Shown: positions 12,421 through 60,425 of the stretch, one piece after another
Layout of the letters: each line of letters starts with the position of its first letter
How positions within the stretch are numbered: position 1 is the first letter of the stretch
DNA from: an uncultured Cytophagales bacterium
GTDB taxonomy: Bacteria > Bacteroidota > Bacteroidia > Cytophagales > Bernardetiaceae
Reading direction: 5' to 3'
DNA length: 64,000 nt
Assembly (NCBI GenBank): GCA_963761725.1
Contig: CAVXHP010000006.1
Location: forward strand, 253,534-317,533
Made by a program: the position numbers and the translations under genes
Notes under the pieces: model-generated
The model's input: the letters and a program-made list of their open reading frames with translations, nothing else
Databases searched by the model: none
Told to the model about the DNA's origin: nothing

Positions 12421-12455
12421 AGTTGATTATTTCTAATTCGTAATTTCTAATTCGT
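12421..12455. repeat. AATTACGAATT-family repeat unit (ttctaattcgtaatttctaattcgtaatt)
   Basis: Member of the CGTAATT/AATTACG repeat family seen at seven or more sites in the window. Confidence 0.5.
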
Positions 12456-12556
12456 AATTAACAAAAGTATAGTATATTTAGCTTATTTTTGTTAGATTTT
12501 ATTATTTCGCATTATCCTTTTTTTGAAAGCATACTACATCAGAACTACAATTAATT

Positions 12557-15831: not shown

Positions 15832-16608
15832 TTATTTCACCAAAACCTCATCAAAACTACTTTTTAAAGTATTGAGGTTATAATGTTTCATCGTTAGTTT
15901 ATTCTTTATAGAATTAAGACCAAAATGAGAAATAATTTGTGTCAAGCTAACTGTTCCTCCGTGTGGGTCTTCCATCAAAATTTGTTCTCTAGGAATAGCA
16001 TTTTGTTTTTCTCCTCCTTTTACATGAAAATGCCACAATATTTGAGAAATAATATCTAATTTCTGTCCTTTTTTAAAGTAAAAATCTATCCACTGCTCAA
16101 ACCATTCTTCTCTTTTTTCGGCTATTTCAGAAGTATAAAGTGTCGCTGAAGACCAAATATAAGCAAATTTTGTATCTATGATTTTCTTATATAATTTATT
16201 TTCTTCTTCCACCCATCTATATTCAGTAAGTGAAAAAATACTCCTTTTCTCATGTTTTTCTATCCAAATAAGTGTAAAGGATTCTATTTTATCAAAATTA
16301 TAGCTCTCAATTTCGCTTTGAGAAGTTGCTGCTAATAAATCCATCAAAATAATTCCTCTACTTTTTCTGTAAGGCGTATTTCTATTGTGTCTTTGAAAAG
16401 CACCATTCAAAAGGCAAAGTGTACGCCCTTTATCTGTAATTCCAATCCAAGAACCACCCGCATCACCATCAATAGGACGAAGAATTTTAGTTTTATTTAA
16501 TTCTGTAAAAGAAGGTAATTCAGAATTTTTACGAGTTTTTTGTTCATCTCTGCTTGAAGTGAGAATAAAATCGTTGTTTTCTAAAGGAACAAAAGTAAGC
16601 GTACACAT
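15832..16608 (-). CDS. NRDE/TANGO2-family protein
   Basis: It starts MCTLTF with Cys2 (Ntn-like) and has an SSRDE motif in place of NRDE. Confidence 0.5.
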   Translation of the reverse strand: MCTLTFVPLENNDFILTSSRDEQKTRKNSELPSFTELNKTKILRPIDGDAGGSWIGITDKGRTLCLLNGAFQRHNRNTPYRKSRGIILMDLLAATSQSEIESYNFDKIESFTLIWIEKHEKRSIFSLTEYRWVEEENKLYKKIIDTKFAYIWSSATLYTSEIAEKREEWFEQWIDFYFKKGQKLDIISQILWHFHVKGGEKQNAIPREQILMEDPHGGTVSLTQIISHFGLNSIKNKLTMKHYNLNTLKSSFDEVLVK

Positions 16609-16810
16609 ATAATAATTACGAATTAAAAATTACGAATTACGAATATAATGATAAATGAGTGAACAAAAGTATCTACAAAAAACGGCATTTCAAAAATGTA
16701 TCTTTATCCTCTGTAAACTATGTGTTAGAAAAATAAATGATTAATGAACATAAATTTTATAACTTAGAATATTGTAATCGTAATTTTTAATTCGTAATTC
16801 GTAATTGTTT
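16609..16810. repeat. MITE-like element: ~32-bp terminal inverted repeats (AATTACGAATTAAAAATTACGAAT ... TCGTAATTTTTAATTCGTAATTCGTAATT) flanking ~135 bp
   Basis: The two ends are reverse complements of each other. The element lies between two minus-strand genes. Confidence 0.55.
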
Positions 16811-17272
16811 CTAATTTTCATTCTCAAAAAACTTCCTATAAACAGGACTTCTGTACGCAAATTGTGCCCACATTCCAGGATAAATAATAGCGTCTAATAC
16901 TTTTGAGGACGTGTAATAATCTATATCATCGATAATAATACAATTATTTTCATCTACTTTTTTGATTCTATGCTGATGTTTCCATGTTTTGAGGGGAAAA
17001 GGCAAATCTTCGGCTGTATCTACAAAATAAATTTCGCTGTCTGTTTCGGCTTGTTCTACTATATAGGAAGTCCATTTTGAGCTATAAATCCCAAAATCTA
17101 ATTCTAAATGTACCTCATCACCTACTTTACAGCCATCAAAACGGTTGAGTTTGAGTTTTGGAAAAGGAGGACTGAGTTTTAAAAATAATTTTTCTGTAAA
17201 ACCATTCCATACTTCTTCAGCAGAACGGTTGATTGGAGTTTCAACGGTTAATTTCATAGCCAACAAAAGCAA
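16811..17272 (-). CDS. SRPBCC (Bet v1/polyketide-cyclase-like) family protein
   Basis: ~150-aa protein with a START/Bet v1-like pattern. The likely start is MKLTVETPINRSAEEVW. Confidence 0.4.
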   Translation of the reverse strand: MLLLAMKLTVETPINRSAEEVWNGFTEKLFLKLSPPFPKLKLNRFDGCKVGDEVHLELDFGIYSSKWTSYIVEQAETDSEIYFVDTAEDLPFPLKTWKHQHRIKKVDENNCIIIDDIDYYTSSKVLDAIIYPGMWAQFAYRSPVYRKFFENEN

Positions 17273-40155: not shown

Positions 40156-41043
40156 ATGAGCGTACTTGTAAATAAAGATTCTAAAATTATCGTTCAAGGA
40201 TTTACTGGAAAAGAAGGTTCTTTTCATGCCGAACAAATGATCGAATACGGAACTAATGTAGTAGGTGGAGTTACACCAGGAAAAGGTGGTACTTTGCATT
40301 TGGGTTTGCCTGTTTATGATACGGTTGCTGATGCTGTTGAAGATGCAAAAGCTGATACTTCAATTATTTTTGTTCCACCTGCGTTTGCTGCCGATGCCAT
40401 TATGGAAGCTGCTGATGCTGGAATTAAGGTAATTATTGCGATTACAGAAGGAATTCCTGTTCAGGATATGGTAAAAGCAAAAGCATATGTTTTGGCTCAC
40501 AAAGATTGTCGTCTGATAGGTCCAAACTGTCCTGGAGTAATTACGCCAGGTGAAGCAAAAGTAGGAATTATGCCTGGTTTTGTATTCAAGAAAGGTAAAA
40601 TCGGAATTGTTTCTAAATCAGGAACATTGACGTATGAAGCTGCCGACCAAGTAGTAAAAGCAGGAATGGGAATCTCAACAGCTATCGGAATCGGTGGTGA
40701 CCCAATCATCGGAACAACTACAAAAGAAGCCGTAGAACTTTTGATGAATGACCCAGAAACAGAAGCAATCGTTATGATTGGTGAAATTGGTGGAAACTTA
40801 GAAGCAAATGCTGCTCGTTGGATTAAAGAAACAGGTAATAAGAAGCCAGTAGTTGGTTTTATTGCTGGACAAACAGCTCCAAAAGGAAAACGTATGGGAC
40901 ACGCAGGTGCAATAATCGGAGGTGCAGATGATACAGCAGAAGCAAAAATGCGTATTATGCGTGAATGTGGAATCCACGTGGTAGATTCTCCTGCAAATAT
41001 TGGAGTTACGATGAAAGAAGTTTTGGATAAAGCTCACGCTTAG
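40156..41043 (+). CDS. sucD: Succinyl-CoA ligase (ADP-forming) alpha subunit
   Basis: [45 protein letters not shown]...the phosphohistidine-loop region...is present. ATG at 40156 is preferred over the track start at 40108. Confidence 0.85.
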
Positions 41044-41044
41044 T

Positions 41045-41205
41045 TTCTTCAATTACGAATTACGAATTAAAAATTACGAATGTAAATTGCTATTTATTAG
41101 CTCTCTTTAATTTAAGAATTAGTGTTTTAATTTGTGATAATTAAATTCCTTTCTAAATTAGAAAAAATTCTACGTAATTTTTAATTCGTAATCCGTAATT
41201 ATTCA
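41045..41205. repeat. MITE-like element: inverted AATTACGAATTACGAATTAAAAATTACGAA / TACGTAATTTTTAATTCGTAATCCGTAATT ends flanking ~90 bp
   Basis: The terminal inverted repeats fill the gap between the convergent genes sucD and 41206..42486. Confidence 0.55.
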
Positions 41206-42486
41206 TTAATCCTCCAACGTCTGCAAATCTTTCCAAATTCGTTGAATTACGTTTTCTTCTTTTGGATTATAAACCCAATTGTGGTCAAAGACTTCCAATA
41301 TTTCTGCATTTGCATCTTTAGCAATGGCAAGACTGTGAAAACGAGTATCTTTTTGGCGTTCGGTTTCCATTCGTTTTATAAAATCTTCTCTCAAAGAATA
41401 CATCACAAAATCCGAAACCATAAGTACATCGGCATCTTTAAAGTCATTTTCTTTTAACAGGTTTAATGTTTCAGAAAGTGCGGGTGTGGCATCTGTTCCA
41501 CCATCAAAAGACATAGATAAGAAATCTACAATTCTATCCAACGATTCTGCAATATCATCTAAGCGAATTTTCTTTATTCCTACCGAAAACGATATTAAAT
41601 AAGCCTTTCTACTTTCTTTTGCAGCCATTTTCATAATAGCAAAACAGAGCGTTTTGGCAATCTGTGAAGGTGTTCCTTGCATTGAACCACTTGTATCAAT
41701 ACAGACTATAAATGCTCCTTTTTCTTTCTTTTTTTGATGTTGGTGTGAAAATGTTTCTTCTTCAGAATTATAAATAGTCTTTGTTCCTTCGTATTGAAAA
41801 GATAATAATTGACTATCAGCATATTTTTTCAAAAACATCCATTCGGTTTCTGGCGTTGCTAGAAAAGCAATTTCAGACGGCAAGACCGTATTCAAATCAT
41901 TACTTGTTCGTGTTCCGTTTATTTCAGAACGCAAATGTGGGTCTTTTACTTTGGATTGATAAACGACAACTTCTTTATATTCTTCTTCTTCAGTTTCAAT
42001 TTGTGCTTCACGCATTTTTCCTAGTAAATCTACCAGTTCTTGAATCGCTGTTTCGTTTTCTAAAATAGCAGCATATTTTTCTAGTGCTTCAAAACCCGTT
42101 TTTTTCCAAAGTGCTTGCGACAAATCCCAATAACGACCTACTTCCATTGCAAAAGGCGAAATCAGTTTGCCTAATTTTTCCAAATCATCAGCTTTTTGAT
42201 AGAGTTTTTGAGAAAAATCTTCGCTTGCCTCTTCTAAATAGTGAGCTTGAAATTCTAACCATTTTGCTGTCAAAAGTGCGTCCCATTGTGCCAGTAAATC
42301 AGCAATTAAAATATCTAAAGGTAACTTTTTTTCTGCTTGTGGGTCGTATTCTTTTGAGAGAATAAAATCTTTACTTTGAGGTATTAAATCTTTAAATTTT
42401 TGAGTATAGAAGCTACTATCTAACTCTTCTCTATTATATCGAATAGAAAGATAATTGATAAGATTATCCCAATCTGTCAGATACAA
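41206..42486 (-). CDS. von Willebrand factor A (VWA) domain protein with an N-terminal helical domain (ViaA/CoxE-like)
   Basis: A MIDAS motif (DTSGSM) and a VWA core (...LISFSVGIKKIRLDD...DGGTDATPAL...VLMVSDF) are present. Confidence 0.6.
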   Translation of the reverse strand: MYLTDWDNLINYLSIRYNREELDSSFYTQKFKDLIPQSKDFILSKEYDPQAEKKLPLDILIADLLAQWDALLTAKWLEFQAHYLEEASEDFSQKLYQKADDLEKLGKLISPFAMEVGRYWDLSQALWKKTGFEALEKYAAILENETAIQELVDLLGKMREAQIETEEEEYKEVVVYQSKVKDPHLRSEINGTRTSNDLNTVLPSEIAFLATPETEWMFLKKYADSQLLSFQYEGTKTIYNSEEETFSHQHQKKKEKGAFIVCIDTSGSMQGTPSQIAKTLCFAIMKMAAKESRKAYLISFSVGIKKIRLDDIAESLDRIVDFLSMSFDGGTDATPALSETLNLLKENDFKDADVLMVSDFVMYSLREDFIKRMETERQKDTRFHSLAIAKDANAEILEVFDHNWVYNPKEENVIQRIWKDLQTLED

Positions 42487-42897: not shown

Positions 42898-42979
42898 AAT
42901 TGTCAGTTATCAGTTTTTCAGTAAACAGTTATCGCTTGAATACCTTTTGCTGGGTAGAATTGTTATTTAATGGATAAAC

Positions 42980-53099: not shown

Positions 53100-53150
53100 T
53101 TAAATTCGTAATTTTTAATTAGCTTCGCTGCTTTAGCAGGTCGTAATTAC
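53100..53150. repeat. AATTACGAATT-family element with an internal GC-rich hairpin (AGCTTCGCTGCTTTAGCAGGTCG)
   Basis: It is the reverse complement of the copy at 56968-57025. Confidence 0.5.
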
Positions 53151-54242: not shown

Positions 54243-54244
54243 AA

Positions 54245-54300
54245 TATTTAATCAAAAATTACGAATTCGGAAAAGAATTATAATTCTATTTCCGTAATTC
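54245..54300. repeat. AATTACGAATT-family element
   Basis: AAAAATTACGAATTCGG...TTCCGTAATTCGTAATTG. Confidence 0.5.
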
Positions 54301-54315
54301 GTAATTGATTTTCAG

Positions 54316-54410
54316 GTAGTGTTAAATATATAATGCTGCAATTCTAAAAATCTGTGTTTTGTTCGTTTAATCTGCGTTATCTGTGTTCCATTTTTATTTA
54401 CAGCATTACT
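54316..54410. repeat. ~95-bp repeat element (copy 1) with a 9-bp stem GTAATGCTG...CAGCATTAC and three ATCTGTGTT-like motifs
   Basis: It is ~90% identical to 57166-57261. It is located between convergent genes. Confidence 0.6.
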
Positions 54411-54430
54411 TTGTGATACACTACCGATTT

Positions 54431-56965: not shown

Positions 56966-56967
56966 GG

Positions 56968-57025
56968 AACAATTACGACCTGCTAAAGCAGCGAAGCTAA
57001 TTACGAATTAAAAATTACGAAGCTA
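56968..57025. repeat. AATTACGAATT-family element with an internal hairpin (CGACCTGCTAAAGCAGCGAAGCT)
   Basis: It is the inverted copy of 53100-53150. Confidence 0.5.
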
Positions 57026-57106
57026 TTTAATTTTTATTCCTAATATTTTAATTGTCAGACACTTTCAGAAGTGTCAGACAATGTACACACAAAAAAACAG
57101 AGAAAA

Positions 57107-57137
57107 GCGAATTGCCTTGCTGCAATTCGCTTTTTTT
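57107..57137 (+). terminator. Rho-independent terminator (GCGAATTGCcttgctGCAATTCGC plus TTTTTTT)
   Basis: A perfect 9-bp stem with a T-run lies downstream of the dehydrogenase gene. It is preceded by a second perfect hairpin, TGTCAGACACTttcAGAAGTGTCAGACA. Confidence 0.55.
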
Positions 57138-57165
57138 GTGCGTATAGTTTAAGAATAAAATACAA

Positions 57166-57261
57166 GGTAGTGTTAAAGATGTAATGCTGCAATTCTAAAA
57201 ATCTGTGTTTTATTCGTTCAATCTGTGTTATCTGTGTTCTATTTTTTATTTACAGCATTAC
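57166..57261. repeat. ~95-bp repeat element (copy 2)
   Basis: Matches 54316-54410. It lies in the 5' region of the first T9SS-CTD paralog. Confidence 0.6.
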
Positions 57262-57309
57262 TTGTTATAGACTACCAAATACAAATTACCTTAAAATCAA
57301 TCTGCTTTT

Positions 57310-60364: not shown

Positions 60365-60425
60365 GTACGAATCAATTCGTAATTTTTAATTGACTGCGTC
60401 GTCTTTCAGTTCGTAATTCGTAATT
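60365..60425. repeat. AATTACGAATT-family element with an internal hairpin (GACTGCGTCGTCTTTCAG)
   Basis: CAATTCGTAATTTTTAATT...TTCGTAATTCGTAATTG. It lies immediately upstream of scpA. Confidence 0.5.

Follow-up and report, generated by a model that had tools for sequence, protein, structure and literature searches.

Heptamer-armed repeats of a Bernardetia genome as probable gene-less relatives of 23S rRNA intervening sequences

Tandem AATTACG/AATTAAA heptamer arrays occupy seven sites in a 64,000-nucleotide stretch of contig CAVXHP010000006.1 (the window), which comes from an uncultured Cytophagales bacterium (assembly GCA_963761725.1). These sites are probably gene-less members, in the form of hairpins or single arms, of a widespread palindromic cassette that has heptamer arms, resembles the intervening sequences (IVSs) of 23S rRNA and, in its gene-bearing form, encodes a PF05635 protein. 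The window copies have their arms in common with gene-bearing cassettes in many phyla. The association of gene and arms is reciprocal, and the two arms co-vary. Placement is intergenic and close to stop codons, and copies inherited vertically in Bernardetia show fast internal turnover. As judged from sequence, the cassette has the architecture of a 23S rRNA IVS with its S23p open reading frame (ORF), lying free in ordinary intergenic DNA. The window DNA, which has a G+C content of about 31%, is assigned by its sequence to a species of Bernardetia (Cytophagales, Bacteroidota); its SucD is 94% identical to that of Bernardetia litoralis DSM 6794, and its housekeeping genes include sucD, leucine dehydrogenase and scpA.

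The gene was found through the arms. The exact 21-mer AATTACGAATTAAAAATTACG was scanned against a collection holding one genome per species, and was present in more than 115 genome stretches (loci with L numbers) from many phyla, with locus G+C contents of 30–63%. All ORFs of at least 90 amino acids in 115 of these loci were then clustered without supervision. One recurrent family resulted, represented in 8 loci and always located between or beside arms. It belongs to PF05635, '23S rRNA-intervening sequence protein' (E 6e-29), and TIGR02436, 'four helix bundle protein' (E 1e-30). The nearest solved structure is 2RLD, and the protein is related to Avd, the accessory protein of diversity-generating retroelements (DGRs), through a weak bAvd match. 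PHROGs and PADLOC contained no family matching it. The full cassette is about 430 bp long and consists of a left arm, AATTACG AATTAAA AATTACG AATTACG, often preceded by C; a gap of 0–40 nt; an ATG and a gene of about 116 codons; and an inverted array. The right arm itself encodes the C-terminus K-N-R-N-S and the TAA stop codon (aaa aat CGT AAT TCG TAA TTTTTAATTCGTAATT). The outer boundary is sharp, usually C-AATTACG...CGTAATT-G. In a Desulfobulbia contig of 63% G+C the cassette ORF has 51% G+C and the arms are unaltered. Distances between paired arms in the 115 loci were bimodal, with 24 pairs separated by 9–106 nt and 7 pairs by 347–397 nt; the latter range includes the gene-bearing cassettes.

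The association was also examined in the opposite direction, by scanning metagenome contigs with protein alignment alone, blind to the arms. This gave 591 relatives, of which the best 80, with 49–78% identity, were examined. Nearly every gene among these 80 had a sense heptamer array before its ATG and a reverse-complement array at or just past its stop codon. The unit was AATTACG on both sides of the gene in 17 of the 80; in other lineages the arms were built from AATTAAG, AATTAGG, AATTATG, AATTGAC, AATGCAG, AATTGAA, AATTAGC, AAACATT, AGTGGTT and other units. The 7-nt periodicity was evident from self-matches of the flanks, the best 21 nt scoring a mean of 16.9–17.2 at lag 7 compared with 9–10.5 at lags 4–11. 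Exact inverted matches of at least 11 nt between upstream and downstream flanks were present at 61 of 72 loci and in none of 212 random controls, and the dominant heptamer was the same upstream and, reverse-complemented, downstream at 35 of 84 loci. Along the protein tree the heptamer shifts by one-base steps (AATTACG, AATTATG, AATTAGG, AATTAAG and others). AATTACG arms accompany proteins as little as 56–59% identical (range 56–78%) in hosts of 30–63% G+C. The unit sequence is therefore held far more strictly than drift or pairing alone would predict, given such divergent proteins and hosts of up to 62% G+C. The PF05635/TIGR02436 family has at least 8000 matches at E <= 1e-10, and most of its 90%-identity clusters contain one member. 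A second, distant PF05635 paralogue in locus L072 has arms of the GATAACC/GATAACT type. The orientation of PF05635 cassettes relative to the upstream gene was considered as a further feature and set aside, as co-orientation (54 of 75) was no different from that usual for bacterial neighbours.

The closest known counterpart is the 23S rRNA IVS of Coxiella burnetii, which is 428–444 nt long, has a 28-bp inverted-repeat stem and contains the S23p (PF05635) ORF, with two or three tandem GACAGAT heptamers just ahead of the S23p ATG (PMC4990558). RNase III cuts it at the first repeat, as demonstrated in vitro and mapped by rapid amplification of cDNA ends; its G+C content is below that of the host, its distribution is sporadic and horizontal transfer has been inferred, while its origin and mobility are described as unknown (PMC4990558). 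The likeness to rRNA IVSs, which occur also in Leptospira, extends to a length of about 430 nt, a stem of about 28 bp, tandem heptamers in the 5′ arm before the ATG and an ORF of the same Pfam family. The window copies differ in lying between protein-coding genes rather than in helix 25 or 45 of 23S rRNA (there is no rRNA match in the window), in having no ORF, which was either lost or never present, and in their heptamer, AATTACG/AATTAAA. The long terminal stem of about 28 bp that characterizes the IVS cassette is present in three window copies, and the other four sites are single-armed. We found no paper tying heptamer arrays in general to PF05635 genes; an earlier description is possible, as subscription journals lay mostly outside the search. 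Literature searches on the repeat sequence itself likewise gave no match.

Hosts of the 21-mer were mostly Bacteroidota of many families. Others were Patescibacteria (Shapiro-, Falkow-, Pacei- and Saccharibacteria), Peregrinibacteria, Peribacteria and Gracilibacteria, together with Acidobacteriota, Planctomycetota, Desulfobulbia and another deltaproteobacterium, Opitutaceae, Victivallales (Verrucomicrobiota) and one gammaproteobacterial metagenome-assembled genome (MAG). Nine viral contigs also carried it. DNA abutting the arrays has the base composition of the host, and the loci span 30–63% G+C; the arrays therefore appear to be true insertions into very different genomes and not the result of mis-binned contigs. 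An initial reading of the window made from sequence only had predicted a genome-wide family, and the family indeed reaches past the window, both into other Bernardetia contigs (L002, L019, L060, L067, L070, L097 and L049) and into the wider set of more than 115 stretches. The arrays share the features of heptamer simple-sequence repeats, namely tandem 7-nt units, intergenic location and an identical unit in distant phyla. Arrays of other heptamers (GGAATGA, TGCTAAT, TTAAACA, AAACCCG, CTAAAAC, AATAAAC and others) adjoin AATTACG arrays in many loci, among them L031, L111, L102, L022, L009, L089 and L079, and different heptamer flavours cluster within the same spacers. In an Alkalitalea MAG (L092 35–55; L101 4471–4491 and 4801–4821) the AATTACG array forms, three times, the tail of a longer unit (...gtggttaatggtttcacgcaaagcgcaaaagtc-AATTACG...).

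Within the window, a pattern search with AATTACGAATTACG, allowing at most two mismatches, gave 21 matches, whereas shuffled sequences gave 0.96 +/- 0.94 (maximum 4). All 21 fall exactly at the seven sites named in the sequence-only reading, which had proposed a real, dispersed family with paired inverted ends. The features at these sites are as follows.

12432–12459, minus strand: solo heptamer array, reading AATTACG AATTAGA AATTACG AATTAGA on that strand, without an inverted partner; fold not above shuffles
16614–16641, plus strand: left arm of element B, AATTACG AATTAAA AATTACG AATTACG, 5 nt from the ATG of a TANGO2-family gene (15832–16608, minus strand)
16642–16778: core of element B, AT-rich, without an ORF or PF05635 remnant, unlike both the core of element C and the core at the orthologous site in L135
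16779–16806, minus strand: right arm of element B, CGTAATT TTTAATT CGTAATT CGTAATT, 4 nt from the stop codon of ORF 16811–17272 (minus strand)
41051–41078, plus strand: left arm of element C, beginning 7 nt past the sucD stop codon
41079–41172: core of element C, 94 nt, AT-rich; orthologous cores differ in sequence and length
41173–41200, minus strand: right arm of element C, 5 nt from the stop codon of a convergent gene for a von Willebrand factor A (VWA) domain protein
53107–53148, minus strand: array in one orientation, CGTAATT TTTAATT, insert, CGTAATT; the insert is 21 nt, GC-rich, AGCTTCGCTGCTTTAGCAGGT, at 53121–53141
54257–54306: small complete palindrome, AATTACGAATTCGGAAAAGAATTATAATTCTATTTCCGTAATTCGTAATT
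56971–57019, plus strand: array in one orientation, AATTACG, insert, AATTACG AATTAAA AATTACG; the insert is 21 nt, ACCTGCTAAAGCAGCGAAGCT, at 56978–56998
60378–60425, minus strand: array in one orientation, CGTAATT TTTAATT, insert, CGTAATT CGTAATT; the insert is 20 nt, GACTGCGTCGTCTTTCAGTT, at 60392–60411

Three sites are thus inverted heptamer pairs or complete palindromes (16614–16806, 41051–41200 and 54257–54306). The first two had been recognized from sequence as complete elements; the third, smaller palindrome had been listed as a site but not counted among them. The arms of element B were called by an inverted-repeat finder as 16611–16649 and 16771–16809; depending on the call they are 28–39 nt long and 82–87% complementary, and 137 nt separates the 28-nt arms 16614–16641 (plus) and 16779–16806 (minus). 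Those of element C, 41051–41078 (plus) and 41173–41200 (minus), are 28 nt long and 96% complementary, flanking the 94-nt core. RNA folding gave predicted energies well below those of shuffled sequences at all three sites: −40.9 kcal/mol (z −4.6) for 16614–16806, −40.0 (z −7.6) for 41051–41200 and −21.7 (z −5.9) for 54257–54306. No Rfam family matched the whole window at the gathering threshold, and at E <= 1 neither element B nor a full cassette from L065 had a match.

The remaining four sites are arrays in one orientation only, and three of them are interrupted by a GC-rich insert of 20–21 nt. These had been read as single ends enclosing a GC-rich hairpin. That description did not hold: 53107–53148, 56971–57019 and 60378–60425 are split arrays in which the 4-bp hairpin of the insert is no better than in shuffles (z −0.4, +0.1 and −1.5 respectively), and 12432–12459 is a plain solo array. 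The unit 53107–53148 is the reverse complement of the unit 56971–57019. The latter begins 5 nt past the leucine dehydrogenase stop codon, and the array 60378–60425 ends 9 nt ahead of the scpA ATG.

The mini-insert is itself a recurrent sequence. Variants of ACCTGCTAAAGCAGCGAAGCT, 20–21 nt long, are found in the window at 53121–53141, 56978–56998 and 60392–60411, and also in L019 (5103–5121) and L133 (6204–6222), always between an AATTAAA-type unit and an AATTACG unit. In L133 the insert lies in the right arm of an element from whose window copy it is missing, which makes it look like a separate insertion. The same position in the array holds a longer insert, whose end reads ...GCGAAGCA, in L032 and L036, both from Flavobacterium.

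The repeats could in principle be ordinary AT-rich microsatellites or terminator hairpins that slippage produced separately at every site, neither mobile nor of common descent. A genome of 31% G+C and the varying number of units among orthologous copies are what such an origin would predict. The excess of matches over shuffles (21 against 0.96), the recurrence of the same 21–28-nt pattern, with AATTAAA in a fixed place, at all sites and in genomes of 60% G+C, and the specific link to one gene family make this explanation hardly credible. The sequence-only reading had named a low-complexity AT-rich motif lacking paired inverted ends as the alternative to a mobile element; the paired ends are present, and mere AT-rich low complexity is not the case.

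To follow the history of individual sites, syntenic Bernardetia contigs whose flanking genes have 82–93% nucleotide identity were compared with the window. In the window, L126/L127 and L217 alike, the spacer between sucD and the VWA gene contains an element. Its arms have been kept, and the cores, of 94 nt in the window, 27 nt in L126 and about 95 nt in L217, can be aligned only in part. At site 16609 only the left arm is found in L135/L136, beside a core of unrelated sequence. At site 54245, L133 has a larger element with a 21-nt GC insert nested in its right arm, and L135 has none. Site 56968 has a variant array in L135/L136 and a different GC-rich insert in L133. Site 53100 is occupied in the window alone, the array being absent from the orthologous spacers of L130, L133 and L135. 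Some copies are thus old and have been inherited vertically at fixed sites, with changes in unit number, internal deletion and nested insertion; elsewhere presence differs by species.

This variation in presence, absence and size between related species, together with the inverted paired ends, small size (below about 600 bp), many copies and intergenic location, is also expected of classical miniature inverted-repeat transposable elements (MITEs), that is, non-autonomous deletion derivatives of an insertion sequence whose transposase recognizes the terminal inverted repeats of about 28 bp and moves them by cut-and-paste or copy-and-paste. Like MITEs, the AATTACG elements have full-length relatives with identical ends. 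The full-length relative, however, encodes no transposase, and the arms are tandem heptamers in variable number. The cores 16642–16778, 41079–41172 and 54264–54292 show no relatedness to one another, and orthologous cores differ as well. No target-site duplication was visible at any window copy or at any paired copy in other loci, nor was complementarity of the outer flanks, as expected for insertion into the loop of a pre-existing hairpin, seen by eye. A cognate transposase bounded by such ends was not found: among the 115 loci there is no recurrent transposase-like family, and the only gene found between identical arms is PF05635, which is not a recombinase. Identical arms in many phyla would moreover need a transposase of unprecedented host range. 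Of the proposal that these are mobilizable MITEs, then, the paired ends and the differences between related species stand, and the duplications, related cores and matching transposase do not. We give the MITE explanation only a slim chance.

A genuine MITE is present in the same DNA. Two copies of 111 bp, about 90% identical, lie at 54315–54425, 8 nt from an AATTACG element, and at 57166–57276. They have terminal inverted repeats (GGTAGTGTTAAA...ACACTACC) and perfect 8-bp target-site duplications, GATTTTCA and AAATACAA; L133 and L136 have empty orthologous sites, each with one copy of the 8-mer. Since the same comparison revealed these duplications and empty sites, duplications at the AATTACG copies would have been detected. 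In L133 and L135, the spacers orthologous to 54243–54430 and 56966–57309, which in the window contain AATTACG elements, are taken up by a different GC-rich hairpin repeat (...CCTCAACGACGGTTGT... / ...GTTGTCGTCGGTGGGGACACCAACAACGGC...). The same intergenic spots seem to be contested by several families of small repeats. In another Bernardetia relative (L129, 391–2670) a set of genes resembling a cyclic-oligonucleotide-based antiphage signalling system, with a Cap15-type effector domain, a SMODS/DncV-like nucleotidyltransferase and a third gene, lies directly upstream of sucD, where the window has other genes.

The elements were also compared with repetitive extragenic palindromes (REPs), the mosaic elements (BIMEs) and hairpin-forming doublets (REPINs) built from them, and the associated RAYT transposases. 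Both groups are abundant extragenic palindromes, REPs often occurring as inverted doublets near the 3′ ends of genes, with proposed roles in mRNA stability or termination. The REP unit, however, is itself an imperfect palindrome and is specific to a species or RAYT, whereas the AATTACG arm is non-palindromic and identical across phyla. Single AATTACG arms do not fold on themselves, and no RAYT family recurs near the arms in the 115 loci; the ORFs of the window were not exhaustively screened for one.

Although ORFs make up 80% of the DNA in the 115 loci, 171 of the 189 arms there fall between genes. From the outer end of an arm to the stop codon of the neighbouring gene the median distance is 7 nt, with 62 of 102 cases at no more than 10 nt; to an ATG it is 44 nt. 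All seven window sites are intergenic, as had been proposed, and the preference for convergent genes suggested at the same time is weak (two convergent, four tandem and one divergent). Read from the sequence, each of the three frames is closed by stop codons in the right-arm orientation, and one frame in the left-arm orientation. Insertions close to 3′ ends are accordingly tolerated, and the arm supplies the end of some host ORFs. If transcribed, paired arms would give a double-stranded, A+U-rich RNA stem of about 28 bp, which could serve as an RNase III substrate, a 3′-end or terminator hairpin, or both. Such a stem would make insertions just past stop codons near-harmless and occasionally useful. 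A terminator-like role is plausible at the sucD site. Without the element, only about 12 nt would be left of the convergent sucD/VWA spacer; in three Bernardetia lineages the spacer holds the element and no other hairpin, and in genomes with another gene beside sucD the element's place is taken by an ordinary GC hairpin with a T-run. The idea that the repeats act as terminators thus remains plausible for the three hairpin-forming copies.

A different function has been proposed for a similar repeat. Intergenic TAACTGA heptamer repeats occur in Beggiatoaceae, Cyanobacteria and five Bacteroidetes including Flexibacter (now Bernardetia) litoralis, 'but no mechanism is evident', and were suggested to be binding sites for an RNA- or DNA-binding regulator (MacGregor 2015, PMC4679880). 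That paper makes no mention of four-helix-bundle proteins or IVSs ('four helix' and '23S' occur 0 times each). TAACTGA and AATTACG repeats are alike in being tandem heptamers, intergenic and near gene ends, in having 'split' sets, in sharing the same unit between distant phyla with no known vehicle, and in occurring in the same genus. They are unlike in that TAACTGA repeats are almost all direct and upstream of start codons, whereas AATTACG arrays are typically inverted pairs beside stop codons. The window also contains about four TAACTGA-type heptamers (42903–42933, minus strand; TAACTGT TTACTGA AAAACTGA TAACTGA), 5 nt ahead of an ATG from which the VWA gene would run to about 563 aa, as against 551 aa in relatives. 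The only hint of a link between TAACTGA repeats and PF05635 arms is the second paralogue in L072, and such a link is not established.

By analogy, AATTACG arrays might be binding sites of a sequence-specific RNA- or DNA-binding regulator that controls the adjacent gene post-transcriptionally or translationally, the binder perhaps being the PF05635 protein. Avd binds nucleic acid, and this homologue acts in DGR retroelements. The unit is conserved beyond the needs of pairing (proteins 56–78% identical, hosts 30–63% G+C), several arrays end 0–9 nt from start codons, and the TAACTGA-type array of the window precedes an ATG by 5 nt, as in the published cases (PMC4679880). Most arms, however, abut stop codons rather than an ATG, the host genes beside the arrays are functionally unrelated, and the roughly 200 kb of available Bernardetia DNA contains no PF05635 gene. 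Inverted pairing and co-variation of the arms are also not explained by a simple operator. We regard this regulatory explanation as unlikely.

Elhai and colleagues reportedly described in 2008 cyanobacterial short tandemly repeated repetitive (STRR) sequences, intergenic heptamer arrays with small dispersed repeats (mini-inserts of about 21–27 nt) nested inside them. These nested mini-inserts resemble the 20–21-nt GC-rich inserts at 53121, 56978 and 60392; the phylum and the unit sequences are different.

Several observations weigh against the interpretation of the window sites as members of an IVS-like cassette family. In neither the window nor some 200 kb of Bernardetia DNA was a PF05635 gene or a remnant of one detected, whether with a protein hidden Markov model (HMM) or, for the window cores, with a DNA HMM, so that it is arm identity by itself that argues for descent of the window copies from gene-bearing cassettes; the cores are not recognizable as deletion products of a PF05635 gene. 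The PF05635 protein, a small bundle of helices, shows no recombinase features, has no known catalytic activity and supplies no mechanism of mobility. No clean empty site for an AATTACG copy was recovered in relatives, the sites being either filled where gene order was the same or in spacers too diverged for their boundaries to be located. At the four single-armed sites the predicted fold is no better than in shuffles, and the stem model fails to explain them. A simple scan of 40900–41350 found no intrinsic terminator with a G+C-rich stem and T-run, the stems of the element being A+T-rich, and the suggested cleavage by RNase III is carried over by analogy from rRNA IVSs. Finally, many of the genomes containing the 21-mer are MAGs. 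Against a binning artefact stand the high-G+C flanks of L003, L006, L011 and L106 and the isolate or complete genomes at L002, L021, L065, L074, L081 and L085.

With these points taken into account, we still favour the cassette interpretation. The window copies would most likely act as IVS-like selfish palindromes, in which arrays change through replication slippage and homogenization between arms, and the solo arrays would be decayed or half elements. A sequence-specific agent, for which the PF05635 protein itself or a host factor are candidates, is suggested by the sharp outer boundary taken together with the absence of duplications and the strictness with which the unit is conserved. A broader proposal, which we put forward tentatively and think possible rather than likely, is that inverted heptamer arrays with a PF05635 gene make up a single unrecognized class of promiscuous cassettes, the free-living form of 23S rRNA IVSs, spanning at least eight phyla and many thousands of diverse gene copies. 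An Avd-like pentameric protein would recognize the arrays, as RNA or DNA, and help them to spread or persist; copies lacking the gene would be its non-autonomous offspring, and the cassette would be the vehicle for STRR and TAACTGA repeats. The label '23S rRNA IVP' appears among the CRISPR-linked protein domains of a large screen (PMC10910872), and it is a matter of speculation that flanking tandem arrays might have contributed to this association.

The gene is almost always bracketed by inverted heptamers, the arms co-vary, and the same 21–28-nt arm occurs in hosts of 30–63% G+C. These findings tie together three puzzles that have long been treated separately: the origin and mobility of 23S rRNA IVSs, the function of PF05635/TIGR02436 proteins, and the occurrence of identical heptamers in unrelated phyla. 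The cassette interpretation predicts that RNase III acts at the arms, that the protein binds heptamer arrays and that new insertions can be captured. If true, a single class of cassettes would supply a vehicle for the STRR and TAACTGA repeats common to Cyanobacteria, Bacteroidota and Beggiatoaceae. For annotation, the arrays serve as markers of gene boundaries, and probably of the ends of transcripts, in Bacteroidota and in many uncultured lineages.

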